This document shows positions 29,309 through 35,608 of a DNA stretch of 64,000 bases, one piece after another. This DNA is from Myxococcota bacterium (GTDB lineage: Bacteria > Myxococcota_A > UBA9160 > UBA4427): NCBI GenBank assembly GCA_965250285.1, contig OZ252299.1, positions 5,088,001 through 5,152,000 of the forward strand, written 5' to 3'. The position numbers were made by a program, and so were the translations under genes. Within the stretch, counting starts at the first letter, position 1. Each line of letters opens with the position of its first letter. The notes under the pieces were generated by a model. It worked only from the letters and a program-made list of their open reading frames with translations, searched no databases and was not told the DNA's origin.

Positions 29309-30142
29309 CTACGCGGGATCGCTGCGCCGGGGCAGCGCGTCGACGAAGTCGTCGATGGCCGCCGCGAGCGCCTCGGGGGTGTCGAGCAGCACGTGGTGGC
29401 CCGCGCCCGCGATCTCGCAGAGCCGGGCGCCGGGGATCTCTTCGACGAGCTTCTCGGCGCCTTCGCGTGACAGGATCCCGCTCTCCCCGCCGCGCACCAC
29501 GAGGGTCGGGCAGGCGATCTGGGCGGGGTCGGGTCGATCGCGCGGGGGCAGGGCGAACCAGGCCGGGTCGAACTTGTAGCCGTAGCGCCCGTCTTCCTCT
29601 TCGCGCACCGAGGCGGTCGCGATGGCCACGCGGAGCGCCTCGCTGCAGTGGTCGCTCGGGGGCAGGAACCGGAAGCGGTCGATCGCCTCTTCTCGCGAGC
29701 GATACGAGCGCTTGAGTCGCAGCGCCAGATGAGCCCTTCGCTTCGAACGAGGCCGGCCGCCGCGCGCGGGGTCGATCAGCACCGCTGCGCGCGTCTCGGG
29801 GTGCCGCGAGACGTGGTCGAGGGTGACGTGCGCTCCCATCGAGTGACCGACCAGAACGACGTCCCGCGCACCGATCCAGTCGAGCAGGGCCTCGAGATCG
29901 TCCTGAAACGCCCCCGCTTCGTGCTCCTCGGGATGTTCCGAGTCGCCGTGGCCACGAAAGTCGAGGGCCCAGACGCGGAATCGATCGGCGAAACGGGGCG
30001 CGAGATGATCCCACCAGTGTGCGTTTGCACCGCCCCCATGCAGCAACACCATCGGCGGAGACGCCGGGTCGCCCCAGGCACGAAGATGCAGCTCGACGCC
30101 GCCGAGCGCATCGGTGGTGAAGTGCTCGTCGATGGGTTCCAT
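29309..30142 (-). CDS. Alpha/beta fold hydrolase
   Basis: LLHGGG, DFRGHGDS, GHSMG nucleophile elbow, GAGHH. Confidence 0.92.
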   Translation of the reverse strand: MEPIDEHFTTDALGGVELHLRAWGDPASPPMVLLHGGGANAHWWDHLAPRFADRFRVWALDFRGHGDSEHPEEHEAGAFQDDLEALLDWIGARDVVLVGHSMGAHVTLDHVSRHPETRAAVLIDPARGGRPRSKRRAHLALRLKRSYRSREEAIDRFRFLPPSDHCSEALRVAIATASVREEEDGRYGYKFDPAWFALPPRDRPDPAQIACPTLVVRGGESGILSREGAEKLVEEIPGARLCEIAGAGHHVLLDTPEALAAAIDDFVDALPRRSDPA

Positions 30143-30451
30143 GCAGCCAAGGCTAGCAACGTGATCGCCGGCACCGAATCGGGACACGGGCGGCGCCGAT
30201 CAAAAAAGCGTTTTGCTGATACGAGCTTGCACCGAATCCCCGCAGTAGAGCACGAATGTCGAGATGGCCGAAATCGACCGCCTCGCGGCTTCTCGCGGCC
30301 GATCTCGACACCCTCCGAGCGTCGACGGCGCAGACGTTCGCGAACGCTGAATTCGAGATCGGCCGCGCGAGGCCCGCTAGCCCCCCGAATCCGGGGGTCT
30401 TGGGGAACGGCCGAATTCGGCACTTTCACGCCCTCTCGATGCGTTTTCCGA

Positions 30452-30479
30452 TTGACGACCCCCGCAGAACCCTTAATAT
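30452..30479 (+). promoter_or_regulatory. Putative sigma70 promoter of the histone gene
   Basis: TTGACG (30452-30457), 16 nt, TAATAT (30474-30479) in an AT-richer intergenic region. Confidence 0.6.
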
Positions 30480-30604
30480 CGGCGCGAATCGGGGTGCAGA
30501 AGGCATCTCGGTGGATTCAAACGAATTCGTCTTTTGGGGGATACGACGACCTCGGTCACTGCGACGAACGCAGGGCACGCAGGTCTTCGTTCAAGGGAGG
30601 GAAC

Positions 30605-30817
30605 ATGGCAGCCCGCAAGAAGAAGAAGGCCGCACGCCGCGGCAAGCCCGTCGAGCTCATCATCTCGAAGTCGCGCACCAAGGGTGCCGTCAAGAAGTGC
30701 AACGTCGGCGGTGACTTCTACGAAGCGCTCGACAAGGCGGTTCGCGAGCTGATCAAGGACGCCGAAGCGCGCGCCGTCGGCAACAAGCGCAAGACGCTGA
30801 AGGCCGTCGACCTCTAG
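30605..30817 (+). CDS. Bacterial histone-fold protein (70 aa) with basic N-terminal tail
   Basis: RBS AAGGGAGG before ATG 30605; MAARKKKKAARRGKP then ELIISKSRTK..NVGGDFYEALDKAVRELIKDAEARAVGNKRKTLKAVDL with histone RxTxxxxD end. Confidence 0.85.
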   Translation: MAARKKKKAARRGKPVELIISKSRTKGAVKKCNVGGDFYEALDKAVRELIKDAEARAVGNKRKTLKAVDL

Positions 30818-30890
30818 GTCGAATCTGCCGGCACGCGGCGCTCGTCGAGCGTCCGCAGAACGTCCGAGAGAATGTGAGAACGCAAGAATG

Positions 30891-30933
30891 AATGAAGGGC
30901 TCGCCAGCATCGCTGGCGGGCCCTTCTTCATTT
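30891..30933 (+). terminator. Intrinsic terminator downstream of the histone gene (possibly bidirectional)
   Basis: gaagggctcgccagc-atc-gctggcgggcccttc hairpin followed by ttcattt. Confidence 0.8.
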
Positions 30934-31037
30934 CGGGGCTGGCTCCGGCGCTCGAATCGTGCGGGGCGAGCGCCCAGCTTGCCTGACATCGAACGAGTCG
31001 ACGCAGGCGCCGCGGTCGTGCACCTCGGCGCCCAGAG

Positions 31038-32720
31038 TCAGTCGGGCTGCAGCTCGAGCTGACTGCCCGCGGTCAACGTCAGCTCGACCCGACTGGGTCG
31101 TTGCGCAGACGTGACCACCCATTGCTTCGAGACGACCGGCTCGTCGTCGTCGAGCGTCGGCGGCCGGGCGCGCGCGAACCGCGGGCAGTGGGCGGGCGCG
31201 ACGTGAATGCGCACGCGGTGGCCCGCGCGAAACCGCCACGTGCGGTGCCCGAGCGAGACGACGAGCTCATGTGGCTCGTCCTTCTGTGGCTCGTCCTTCG
31301 GTGTCGCGACGTCGTCGAGCCGCGCGAGGCCATCGCCAACTTCGAGGAGCGAGCCCCGCGGCGCGGCGTCGATCAGGTGCACCGCAAAGTCGGCCGGCGC
31401 TTGATCGGCGCCAACGAAGAGTCGCGCGACGACGGGGCCAGCCAGGACGACATCGCGCGCAAGGGGCGCGCTCTCGAGCACCGCGACGTCATCGCGCAGG
31501 GCGAGTCGCCCCTGATCCTTCGAACCGGCCTTCCAGCCGAAGAGCGCGCCGCCGATCGTGGGGGTCGGGTCGCTCGGGTCGTACTCGATCTCGACGCGTC
31601 CCGCGGCAGTGGCGGGCGCGGACACGAGGCGTGCCCGGTCGGTGCTCGCATCGAGATGGAGTGCGGCGGTGTGAGCGTCGGCGGGTGGCCAGGTCGGGCT
31701 GTCGCGCCACTCGCCGCGAGCACCGGGGTCGCAGACGAAGAATCGCACCGCGGGTGCGACGTTCGAGGGCGTGCGCTCGGCGAGGTGGGTGTCGAGATGC
31801 TCGACGATGCGACCGAGTGAACGTCGCTGCAGGCCGTCACGAAAGAAGCGGCGATGGGCGACCGGACCATGGCACCACGGACCGAGCAGCAGCTGCGGCG
31901 CCGCGCCGAGACCGGCGGCCGCCTGCGCGGTGAGCGCTGCGTGATCGTCGAGCTGGGGCTCGAGGAAGAAATCCCAGTAGCCGCCGATCAAGAGCGTCGG
32001 GGGCGCGCGCTCGGGGAGCGGCGCCTGCACGCGGTCCCAATAGTCGTCTCGCTTCGGGCGATCGACCCAGGTGCGGTAGAAGTCGACCTCGCAGCGCGCG
32101 ACGCGGTCGGCCTCGCGAACCGGCTCGAAGTCGAAGGCCCGGTCGAGGTCGAGCTGGCGCGCGTCGACGCCTTCGCGCCGACCGACGCCGGCCGCCCACT
32201 CGACGGCGTTGGCGAACGAGAACACGCCGTGCGGATAGAAGAGGGGGTAGAGATCGCTGCTGCCGATGGCGATCGCGAGGGCGCCGACGCGACCCGGGCG
32301 CAGCGCCGTCGCCGCCCAGGCACAGTGGGCGAGGTAGCTCGCACCGACGAGGCCGACCGGTCCATCGCTCCAGCTCTGGGTTTCGAGCCAGTCGAGCGTG
32401 GCGGCGCCGTCTTCGGCCTCGTTCACGAAGGGCTCGAACTCGCCCTCGCTGGCGTAGCGGCCGCGCACGTCCTGCAGCACGACGTGAAAGCCATACTCGG
32501 CGAGCAGTCGGCCGAGCCAGACGAGCGTCGGCGGACGAATCCAGGTGCCGTACGGCGAACGCAGCACGACCGTGGGCGCGCGCCCTTCGATGCCGATCGG
32601 CCACACGTGTGTCGTGGCCAGTCGGACGCCATCGGGCAGCTCGACGGCGATCGACTCGACGTCGCTTCGACACCGGGGCCGCGGCAGCCCGAGGACGCGG
32701 CGCATCCAGCGGTGGATCAT
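31038..32720 (-). CDS. CocE/NonD-family serine hydrolase
   Basis: DGVRLAT, RSPY, QDVRGRYASEG, GASY nucleophile, GGYWD, LGPWCH, YDPSDPTPTIGG. Confidence 0.9.
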   Translation of the reverse strand: MIHRWMRRVLGLPRPRCRSDVESIAVELPDGVRLATTHVWPIGIEGRAPTVVLRSPYGTWIRPPTLVWLGRLLAEYGFHVVLQDVRGRYASEGEFEPFVNEAEDGAATLDWLETQSWSDGPVGLVGASYLAHCAWAATALRPGRVGALAIAIGSSDLYPLFYPHGVFSFANAVEWAAGVGRREGVDARQLDLDRAFDFEPVREADRVARCEVDFYRTWVDRPKRDDYWDRVQAPLPERAPPTLLIGGYWDFFLEPQLDDHAALTAQAAAGLGAAPQLLLGPWCHGPVAHRRFFRDGLQRRSLGRIVEHLDTHLAERTPSNVAPAVRFFVCDPGARGEWRDSPTWPPADAHTAALHLDASTDRARLVSAPATAAGRVEIEYDPSDPTPTIGGALFGWKAGSKDQGRLALRDDVAVLESAPLARDVVLAGPVVARLFVGADQAPADFAVHLIDAAPRGSLLEVGDGLARLDDVATPKDEPQKDEPHELVVSLGHRTWRFRAGHRVRIHVAPAHCPRFARARPPTLDDDEPVVSKQWVVTSAQRPSRVELTLTAGSQLELQPD

Positions 32721-33928
32721 GCGTCGGTCGACGGCGCACCGTCTTCGCTGTCGTCGGTTTCGTCGTCGTCCACAGCGATCGGGCGCGGGCGTTCGTTCTC
32801 GTCGGATACGTTGACGCCGACGCGAAAGAGTCGCTCGAGCGATACCCGCCGCAGCAGATCGGCGGCGGGCATCGACGTGATGCGCGCGATCTCTTCGAGA
32901 CCGAGCGATGCGACGCGGGCCGCCTTCTCGATGGTCGAGGGCAGGGTCTCGGCGTCGCTCAGCTCGAGGCGATCGGCCACGGCGACGCGGTTCGCCAGCG
33001 CGATGAAGGCGTAGAAGAAGCCCTGCCGCTCGTCGACGTCGAGCTCGGCCACGGTGCGGAACAGCAGCGAGCCCGCCTGCGCGCTCGCGGGCAGGTCGGT
33101 GATCCAGACCGGCATCGCCCAGCGCTCGAGGTCGAGCGCCGACGCGTCGACCGGCAGGTCGCCGAAGCGGTCGCTGCGCAGGAAGCCATAGATGCGCATC
33201 GACTCGTCCCAGCTGGGGAAGCCGAGATCTTCGAGCCGGCCGGTGCGCCAGCGCAGCGACCACTCCTCGAGATCGAAGGGCAGCTCGTGCTCGGCGGCCT
33301 GCAGCAGTCGGAAGTACAGCCAGTAGTCGTGCTGGAAGAGCGTGCGCAGCATCGCGAGCAGGGGCTCGAGATCGTCGTTCTCATCGCGCGCGACGATGTA
33401 GAACTGCCCGTCGATCGTCTGGCCGCCTTCGGGTGCCTGCCAGTCGTCGTCGGTGCCGGCCGGCTTGAGGTCGACCGTCACGTGGTGCTTCACGTAGAGC
33501 GCGATCAGCTCGCTGTCGATCGCGCGGGCGGAGCGCAGGATCGTCTCGGACCCCGCTTCGGCGAGACTCGCAAACCACAAGTCGAGCCTGGCCGGGCTCG
33601 GCCGCAGGTCTTCGAAGGCATCGAGGTCGACACAGGCCACGATCTGATGCTCGGTCGCGTGACTCAGCAGCCACGCCGCATCCTCGACGCCGATCGCCTT
33701 GCAGGTGAAGCACAGCTCGGCTTCGGGCAGCAGCGGGACGATCTGCTCGGGGTGCGAGACGAGATCGAGGAGCGCGCGGCGCTGCGCGATCGGTGCCTCG
33801 CACACGACCGCGGCCTGCGCCTCGGCCTCGAGGTCGTCGAGCAGCGTGCGGGCCGCCGCACGGTCTTCGCGCGCGAGCTTCAGCAGCGCGCGCACGTCGG
33901 GCAGGAGTGTGTCGGGAGCATTGGACAT
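32717..33928 (-). CDS. DUF6178-like conserved protein
   Basis: ACVDLDAF, TIDGQF, LEEWSLRWRTGRLEDLGFP, ALANRVAVAD, LFRVG recalled as typical of this family. Confidence 0.7.
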   Translation of the reverse strand: MSNAPDTLLPDVRALLKLAREDRAAARTLLDDLEAEAQAAVVCEAPIAQRRALLDLVSHPEQIVPLLPEAELCFTCKAIGVEDAAWLLSHATEHQIVACVDLDAFEDLRPSPARLDLWFASLAEAGSETILRSARAIDSELIALYVKHHVTVDLKPAGTDDDWQAPEGGQTIDGQFYIVARDENDDLEPLLAMLRTLFQHDYWLYFRLLQAAEHELPFDLEEWSLRWRTGRLEDLGFPSWDESMRIYGFLRSDRFGDLPVDASALDLERWAMPVWITDLPASAQAGSLLFRTVAELDVDERQGFFYAFIALANRVAVADRLELSDAETLPSTIEKAARVASLGLEEIARITSMPAADLLRRVSLERLFRVGVNVSDENERPRPIAVDDDETDDSEDGAPSTDA

Positions 33929-34685: not shown

Positions 34686-34913
34686 GGCCGCGGATGCTCG
34701 GCGTGGCCCGCGACGCTTTTCTTGGGCCGCGGCTCTTCTCTTGGGCCGCGACGCTTCGTGTGGCCCGCGGCGCTTTTCTTGGGCCGCGGCGCTTCGTGTG
34801 GCCCGCCGCGATTTCTTTGGGCCCGCGGCGCTTCGTGTGGCCCGCCGCGATTTCTTTGGGCCCGCGGTGCTTCGTGTGGCGCGCGGCGGTTTCTTTGGGC
34901 CCGCGGTGCTTCG
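34686..34913. repeat. Degenerate palindromic tandem array (19-20-bp subunits, about 39-bp period) between convergent genes
   Basis: cttcg recurs at 34754, 34792, 34831, 34870, 34909; alternating gggccgcggcgcttcgtgt and ggcccgccgcgatttcttt. Confidence 0.88.
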
Positions 34914-34927
34914 ACGCGGGGGTGGCC

Positions 34928-35608
34928 TCAGCTCGAGATCGGTCGACCGGCGACGACCGACAGCGCGAGGCCCACCTGACCGGCGTAGTAGAGCGGCAGC
35001 CCCCAGAGACTGCTCGCGGGGGATGGGTCGACGAACTGGCGTCGCGCGACCGCGAGGTCGGAGACGCAGAAGAGCGTCGCCCCCAGCGCGATCGCGATCC
35101 CGCCCGAGCCGGGCTCGAAGCCGACCGCGAAGCTCGCCCCCATCGCGAGCGACTCCATCACCGAGATCACGACCACGTACGCGATCACGGGCCCGACCAT
35201 GTCCGGCGGGAGATGGGGCCGGAGCCAGCGCCAGACCCAGAACGCCACCGGTACCAGGACGGCGATCGCAACGCCGACGGGTCGGCCCGCGATGCCGAGC
35301 GCGAGGAACGCCGCCGCGTAGGCGACGTGGCCGAGCAGAAAGCTGCCGAGACCGGCGAGAAAGAACCGGGGCTGGTCGCCGGCCAGCAGGAAGACGTCGC
35401 CGAAGAAGCTCAGCACGAGTCCCGCGAAGATCAGGGGCCCGTACGTGTGACCGGGCTCGAGCGCGCCCATCCACACGGCCAGGACGAGAAAACCCACGCT
35501 GGCCAAGGGCTTGAAGACGATGCTGCCGCCGCGCAGATCCCTCATCTCGCTGATCACCAGCCCGGCTACGAGGGCGGCGATCAAGCCGATCGCGATCAGC
35601 CCGGTCAT
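34928..35608 (-). CDS. YhhN-family lysoplasmalogenase-like membrane protein
   Basis: FKPLAS, GLVLSFFGDVFL, GLGSFLLGHVAY, LFCVSDLAVA, LYYAGQ. Confidence 0.9.
   Translation of the reverse strand: MTGLIAIGLIAALVAGLVISEMRDLRGGSIVFKPLASVGFLVLAVWMGALEPGHTYGPLIFAGLVLSFFGDVFLLAGDQPRFFLAGLGSFLLGHVAYAAAFLALGIAGRPVGVAIAVLVPVAFWVWRWLRPHLPPDMVGPVIAYVVVISVMESLAMGASFAVGFEPGSGGIAIALGATLFCVSDLAVARRQFVDPSPASSLWGLPLYYAGQVGLALSVVAGRPISS

Follow-up and report, generated by a model that had tools for sequence, protein, structure and literature searches.

Face-to-face (FtF) histones are described as torus-shaped tetramers held together by R41, N45 and the C-terminal carboxylate (D4GZE0 numbering), while bacterial dimer histones are defined by the absence of the two tetramer residues, Arg and Asn (PMC11390915). 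Schwab 2024 (PMC11390915) reports positively charged tails, lacking a conserved sequence, in most bacterial FtF histones and names Myxococcota as a carrier phylum for the tailed type. Most bacterial histones are tailless according to Hocher 2023 (PMC10627809) and Hu 2025 (PMC12701072), and the latter reports a precedent, in Leptospira, for an FtF histone in a cell that has no HU.

The locus considered here lies in a window of 64,000 nucleotides, the whole stretch of DNA that was analysed (positions 5,088,001 to 5,152,000 of contig OZ252299.1, assembly GCA_965250285.1, from a bacterium of the Myxococcota). A first-pass annotation, made from the letters of the window, had singled out a stand-alone histone of 70 residues with a basic, eukaryote-like N-terminal tail. 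Its surprise at the tail is understandable, because two of the studies just cited call most bacterial histones tailless; both the protein type and the tail have nevertheless been described, and the gene alone is no surprise. What the gene encodes, how it is distributed and in which company of DNA-packing proteins it is found are the subjects of the following sections.

Results

Gene and reading frame

The 70-aa ORF (30605–30817, forward strand) is a real gene. Its translation is the 70-residue protein originally given (pI 10.4), and a Shine-Dalgarno sequence, GGAGG (30596–30600, forward), stands 4 nt ahead of the ATG, in keeping with the strong ribosome-binding site noted at the outset; SD-like motifs precede the tail ATG in most homologues as well. 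A sigma-70-type promoter-like site (TTGACG, 16 nt, TAATAT; 30452–30479, forward) is the sole match to this pattern between 30100 and 31100 (shuffle mean 0.1). Such a site is found upstream of the histone in 53 of 80 homologous loci, compared to 64 of 1600 base shuffles; the 5′ leader is variable in both length and sequence among 18 aligned sequences. Downstream, pattern matching gave an intrinsic-terminator-like hairpin of 15 pairs (30894–30926) with a T-rich tail (the whole at 30894–30936, forward), which on its own is not above chance since the shuffle mean is 1.0. Both neighbours lie on the opposite strand and outside the system: a divergent alpha/beta hydrolase (29309–30139, reverse; Pfam E = 5e-29) and a convergent Peptidase_S15/PepX_C hydrolase (31038–32855, reverse; domain match). 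Taken together with the promoter-like site and the terminator-like hairpin, this arrangement makes the histone gene look like a transcription unit of its own.

Two alternative readings of the frame were considered and rejected. The first is a 389-aa ORF (29648–30817, forward) at the end of which the histone lies, and which had already been called spurious: its first 492 nt are antisense to the alpha/beta hydrolase and the DNA that follows is intergenic. GC content by codon position after those 492 nt is 0.58/0.65/0.61, which is no coding pattern, whereas the histone has 0.61/0.41/0.90, and in 34 of 124 homologous locus hits the frame is closed by a stop no more than ten codons upstream of the histone start; the part ahead of the histone (29648–30604, forward) is a shadow frame. 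The second is a start downstream of the tail, a possibility the annotation itself had raised: there is no ATG, GTG or TTG from the start to the core, so a tailless form cannot begin downstream at any of these common codons. If the histone gene is translated, then so is the tail.

Contigs from two RNA libraries (two studies, on close relatives) cover only 30527–30823, start codon and tail included. Because such contigs are blind to strand, start and level, because DNA may have been present, and because the histone is the best-conserved part of the stretch, they are not counted as evidence of expression. The codon bias of the histone does not clearly mark it as one of the most highly expressed genes and is not significant once length is matched: 9% of random 70-codon windows are as high in CAI, and 17% in log-odds.

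Fold and predicted assembly

No family assignment for the 70-aa protein was found in Pfam or NCBIfam; of the 1925 candidates from a protein search 1920 were relatives, and many of these carry the name 'histone H3/H4' or DUF1931. An AF2 model based on a wider alignment (98 sequences, hand-chosen from the homologue searches) shows an unstructured N-terminus followed by a histone core of 55 residues (30650–30814, forward; pLDDT 86–93) that consists of helix 1 (residues 22–28), helix 2 (36–59) and a one-turn helix 3 (67–69). This model replaced a poor one from 120 close homologues (pLDDT 64), in which helices 2 and 3 were fused and which reached at most Z 4.6 in a fold search. For helix 1 the model slightly corrects the first-pass annotation, which had assigned it to LIISKSRTK.

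The histone fold of the FtF type, in which helix 2 is shortened and helix 3 has only 3–4 residues, is borne out by structure comparison. The top rows of Foldseek are HLp, HTkC and HBb (rmsd 1.3–1.6 Å, E = 4e-3 and weaker), and VIA gave Z 7.1 for HLp (rmsd 1.2 Å, 54 aligned) and 6.8 for both HBb and HTkC, with the next at 4.8; E values of this order and a Z of about 7 are modest because the core has only 55 residues. The family profile built from the wider alignment ranks the same three proteins first among PDB sequences (HTkC 1e-17, HLp 7e-14, HBb 8e-13), followed weakly by nucleosomal histones. A nucleosomal-type helix 3 of about ten residues is absent, helix 3 being a single turn in the model and the chain ending at residue 70. 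The N-terminal extension contains neither Cys nor His, so there is no ZZ zinc finger.

As far as the model goes, the monomer fold alone cannot separate tetramer from dimer types, whereas the residues can. The tetramer residues of the FtF definition (HMM R48 and N52) correspond to R56 and N60 here, the chain end being L70; with RxTxxxxD (R62, T64, D69) and the C-terminal L70 they constitute the FtF tetramer signature (30770–30814, forward), recognised from conservation and from mapping on HLp and HTkC. Conservation was assessed on close homologues (131 hits in 130 loci, 117 of them distinct) from which five distant proteins and two fused-doublet rows were removed, leaving 110, a set biased toward top-scoring relatives. 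In all 110, R56, N60, R62, T64, D69 and K26 are invariant – K26 being the conserved helix-1 lysine (HMM K16) that matches HTkC K11 and HLp K17 – and every core stops at the same column, one residue past the Asp. The mean top-residue frequency of the core is 0.84, and across the 98 sequences of the wider alignment the signature residues still reach at least 90%. One named relative, A0A518BNL0 (Engelhardtia mirabilis), belongs to the 90% cluster of a tailed homologue that is 58% identical to the 70-aa protein, and is filed as 'Face-to-face' in the data archive of Schwab 2024 (PMC11390915). Among the accessions and categories listed in that archive, sequence motifs of the family gave no match. 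The invariance of R56, N60 and RxTxxxxD places the protein with the FtF alpha3 histones, for which the residues predict a tetramer, and not with the Bd0055-type dimers: the original description of a short prokaryotic histone with an RxTxxxxD motif was apt, its likeness to Bd0055 was not. A further conserved position, Cys32 in loop L1 (30698–30700), is found in 109 of the 110 close homologues and may be a redox-sensitive site or just a buried residue.

Basic N-terminal tail

The tail (residues 1–15; 30605–30649, forward) contains five Lys and three Arg, as originally counted, and is predicted to be disordered (pLDDT about 50, no helix or strand). Homologue starts were chosen by a script favouring Met-Ala/Gly (that of locus L130 was placed too far downstream), and on this basis the 110 homologues carry a tail of 8–28 residues, with a median of 17 residues before the core and a net charge of +6; at least four Lys/Arg are present in 101 of them. 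The tail starts MAAR or MAAK in 95 (at position 4, 58 homologues have Arg and 45 have Lys) and its composition is 33% Lys and 29% Ala. K6 is found in 102 of the 110 tails, and beyond K6 no N-terminal position exceeds 67%, compared to the core mean of 84%. Distant relatives range from tailless to about 45 residues of Lys/Ala repeats. As to kinship with the tails of H3, H4, H2A or H2B, a PDB search with residues 1–20 gave no match at E = 10, a 20-residue, low-complexity query having little power. A tree of 84 cores (58 columns, with an unsettled bootstrap) puts the tailed clade of the class among tailless relatives, and since the key forks are unstarred we claim no origin for the tail. The tail is real and is kept in orthologues, yet it is not new: FtF histones with tails have been published from bacteria before.

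From the drift in length and sequence, and from the free exchange of Lys and Arg, which suit a patch of charge better than a code that is read, we infer that the tail behaves as the former, although its well-kept head, MAA[RK][KR]K, is not something that a pure charge patch needs. A likeness to eukaryotic tails that goes beyond charge, as first suggested, is not supported: length and sequence drift, and at least three other predicted proteins of the window's genome (from crude gene calls) begin with similar Lys/Ala runs. Three predicted proteins with long Lys/Ala-rich, H1-like N-termini (at C1:239504, 5353351 and 6073308) are candidates for extra DNA-packing proteins.

Distribution of the histone

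The best 80 of 258 relatives come mostly from MAGs labelled Myxococcota or Deltaproteobacteria, with some from Spirochaetales and outliers in Methylomirabilota, Eisenbacteria, Latescibacterota and Planctomycetota. Several Spirochaetales-labelled records (L031, L036, L037 and others) carry the histone and the labels are possibly wrong; in L031 and L037 it stands beside the same hydrolase gene as in the Myxococcota records. The bacterial class that carries the tailed histone is probably, on our assumption, UBA9160. The histone is present in 57 of 58 genomes of this class and weakly matched in 4 of 243 other genomes of the phylum; in a larger class sample it was found in 131 of 141 genomes at E < 1e-17, including 96 of 98 of high quality. 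It is a core gene of the class. In most genomes of the class there are two or three histone matches, and many in the window's own family have a third histone-like match that is absent from the window's genome. Locus L111 (G193 C50:163422–163790, reverse), in a genome of 2.8 Mb, is a head-to-tail histone doublet: one ORF of 125 aa that joins two identical cores and lacks a basic tail, through either a recent duplication or an assembly artefact.

Upstream of the histone (38 neighbours scanned) there are hydrolases, a beta-eliminating lyase and an amidase, with counts of 17, 6 and 4, and downstream (38 scanned) DUF6178 (17) and Peptidase_S15 (4). The commonest downstream neighbour, DUF6178, is represented in the window by a gene at 32717–33919 (reverse). 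Further on, short direct repeats (34694–34980) give Lys/Arg-rich repeat ORFs on the minus strand, beside a YhhN-like gene (named by eye).

HU, IHF and the packing of DNA

The window's genome (95% complete, one contig) contains two HU/IHF-family genes, IHF-alpha and IHF-beta, and HU was not found in it. Exactly two genes of the family are present in 56 of 58 class genomes, which are kin and not independent, and both IHF subunits in 48 of the 49 class genomes checked with both queries, the 49th having a fragment where a contig ends; at least three genes of the family are present in 212 of the 243 genomes outside the class. Among the best 150 of 269 matches to the HU query in 141 class genomes, none exceeds 43% identity, compared to 48–68% for the best HU matches elsewhere, the query being a single one that separated HU from IHF uncleanly outside the class and that misses divergent HU. 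Two class genomes depart from the two-gene rule: G015, whose extra gene is a second IHF-alpha, and G008, with an additional pair of divergent HU-family genes. G008 is the sole class genome of the 58 without the tailed histone (its assembly consists of 820 contigs, with 11,484 bases outside the search). Besides the divergent HU-family pair, G008 (L198, L201, L202 and L203) has two histones of other kinds, one Cys-rich and ZZ-like, the other of archaeal type with 74 aa (Pfam Histone, E = 5e-10). The loss of HU does not require this histone, because 31 of the 243 genomes from elsewhere in the phylum lack it and yet have no more than two HU/IHF genes, and G326 (91% complete) shows neither HU nor this histone. 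The window's genome also encodes a second histone (C1:5688413–5688598, reverse; L204:1498–1683), tailless and of the HBb/Bd0055 dimer type (E = 1e-14 to HBb).

If a histone belongs to the core of its class (131 of 141 genomes) and the class has IHF but no HU that could be found (56 of 58), then a major role in packing is likely; by analogy with the Leptospira case this role would likely be in place of HU, and the first-pass proposal of a major nucleoid protein is to that extent well founded. We give a probability of about two in three to the following reading: the gene encodes an FtF histone with a basic tail, predicted to form a ring-shaped homotetramer, which likely wraps about 60 bp without sequence preference and is likely a main packer in a class without a detected HU. 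As in HLp and HTkC, two dimers would close face to face through R56, N60, R62 and the L70 C-terminal carboxylate, and K22, S23, R24, K26 and K30, together with loops L1 and L2, would contact the phosphate backbone. The disordered tail, to judge by how its sequence behaves, would add about +7 charge per chain and may anchor the protein electrostatically to linker DNA or to DNA nearby, an effect set by how long and how charged the tail is and not by a code; bending of DNA would be supplied by the tailless HBb-type dimer histone and IHF.

The same data bear on a lesser role, in which the FtF histone is only an accessory and most of the packing is done by IHF, the tailless dimer histone and the Lys/Ala-rich, H1-like proteins. 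The unremarkable codon bias after length matching, the second histone and other basic proteins in the genome, the lack of both tailed histone and HU in G326, and the non-essentiality of HTkC in Thermococcus, as reported in a preprint (10.64898/2025.12.06.692711), all speak for it. Set against these are the near-universal retention of the histone in the class, the strongly conserved core, the conserved promoter-like site and the failure to find HU in the class, and we regard an accessory role as unlikely.

Candidate modifiers of the tail

The first-pass annotation went on to suggest that the tail could be part of a modification system. Outside the window, 54 kb from the histone gene, a GNAT gene (Acetyltransf_9, E = 3.5e-17) is immediately followed by a stand-alone SET gene with a product of 116 aa (C1:5062807–5064333, forward; L133). 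In the 18 genomes of the family that have both genes, these are less than 150 nt apart in 14, within 2 kb in three and on separate contigs in one. The SET orthologue is found in 32 of 47 genomes of the window's family compared to 6 of the 94 other class genomes; since it is largely a matter of one family and the tailed histone one of the whole class, the tail is independent of it. At least one SET gene of any kind is present in 29 of 58 class genomes and in 68 of 243 outside; the corresponding figures for histone-bearing class genomes and histone-negative genomes outside the class are 28 of 57 and 66 of 239. The pair is a candidate writer, largely limited to one family.

Other modifiers are less specific. 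Two HDAC-family genes and one Sir2 gene are present in the window's genome, and these families also match in 9 and 10, respectively, of 14 control genomes. Neither a modifier family nor a sirtuin was found among 76 scanned neighbours of the histone (38 of 78 upstream and 38 of 76 downstream; E 1e-12 and 1e-10), of which 22 have no family and some are possibly wrong ORF calls. Searches for bromodomains and chromodomains gave no match in the window's genome and are uninformative, because the controls gave none either.

These observations can be set against the proposal that the tail is a regulated platform, on which the lysines of MAA[RK][KR]K are acetylated or methylated, possibly by the GNAT-SET pair, and cleared by the HDAC-family or Sir2 enzymes, so that packing is loosened or tightened. 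The close spacing of the pair, the presence of two HDAC-family genes and a Sir2, and K6 in 102 of 110 tails are consistent with this, and there are precedents: SET enzymes are reported to methylate chromatin proteins of their own cell (cpnSET on Hc1 and Go1-SET on MC1-alpha; PMC3980110), and acetylation of Asgard histone tails is described in a preprint (10.64898/2026.07.02.735847). However, the pair is 54 kb away, its SET orthologue is concentrated in a single family while the histone is class-wide, SET genes are not coupled to the histone across the phylum sample, HDAC and Sir2 are generic, the scanned neighbours include no modifier family, and the tail drifts in length and register. A regulated platform is accordingly improbable in our estimation, and the candidate modification system of the first-pass annotation is not supported: tail length and sequence drift, the 76 scanned neighbours include no modifier and SET does not track the histone. 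More doubtful still is the larger scenario, in which the whole class, an uncultured one, swapped HU for a histone chromatin made of the tailed FtF and the tailless dimer type, and in which the GNAT-SET pair of the one family marks the tail, a system that would have arisen apart from that of Asgard archaea and eukaryotes.

Discussion

The weakest alternative, that the protein acts as an HBb/Bd0055-like dimer which bends or coats DNA, can draw on a tied monomer fold (Z 7.1 vs. 6.8) and on the fact that the argument is one from residues to a tetramer that is itself predicted, but it is very improbable given that R56 and N60, by definition absent from bacterial dimers, are invariant here, and that the HBb-like protein of this genome is the other histone (E = 1e-14), which has Ser and Asp in place of the tetramer Arg and Asn.

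The tailed FtF histone with a likely packing role is of interest as a test case. In the open literature – where the supplement of PMC11390915 may show the class – no paper was found on the histones of this class, its loss of HU, the GNAT-SET pair or marks on bacterial histone tails; nor, in the portion of the open literature on bacterial histones that was covered, was a bacterial histone with a long basic tail found to have been studied at the bench. Nature provides here a series of tail lengths (8–28) while the core hardly varies; the protein also comes with a partner histone that has no tail, with a host class in which HU goes undetected and with two linked genes that are candidates for an acetylase and a methylase. 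With these in hand, the function and the marking of bacterial histone tails become directly testable in E. coli and in vitro.

One of the closest known systems is HLp, the FtF histone of Leptospira perolatii (PDB 9QT0–9QT2; PMC12701072). The two proteins are about 30% identical and have the alpha3-truncated fold in common (rmsd 1.2 Å over 54 residues). As described for HLp (PMC12701072), the interface residues R49, N53, R55, D62 and F63 correspond to R56, N60, R62, D69 and L70 here, and the DNA contacts A13, S14, K15, K17 and K21 to K22, S23, R24, K26 and K30; the host of HLp is reported to have no HU, and likewise none was found here. The differences lie in the N-terminal extension (about 7 unresolved residues in HLp, compared to 15–17 residues of net charge +7 here), in loop L1, which is two residues shorter here, in a Lys at the RKT position, and in the second histone and IHF that are present here.

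HTkC, the archaeal FtF histone of Thermococcus kodakarensis (PDB 9F2C), is the best match by sequence (profile E = 3.6e-6 and 1.2e-17). Its R45 corresponds to R56, and its DNA contacts K7, S8, K9, K11, K52 and T53, as given in the preprint (10.64898/2025.12.06.692711), correspond to K22, S23, R24, K26, K63 and T64. HTkC however has no tail, where the present protein has a basic one; its minor-groove R22 is replaced by N33, and the RD clamp, intact in the present protein, is missing from HTkC. The tailed bacterial FtF histones of Schwab 2024 (PMC11390915) include a member of the same sequence family, A0A518BNL0, and in both cases, so far as that account goes, the tails are positively charged and have no conserved sequence. 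The HBb/Bd0055 dimer (PDB 8CMP, 8FVX) shares the alpha3-truncated fold and RKTxxxxD, but has neither the tetramer Arg/Asn nor a basic tail, both of which are found here, and in dimeric form bends DNA. Finally, the nucleosomal histones of eukaryotes and Asgard archaea resemble the 70-aa protein in combining a histone fold with a disordered, Lys/Arg-rich N-terminus; they differ in their long helix 3 and nucleosomal assembly (rmsd about 2–4 Å to the model), and whereas their tails are known substrates of modification, the tail described here is a hypothetical substrate.
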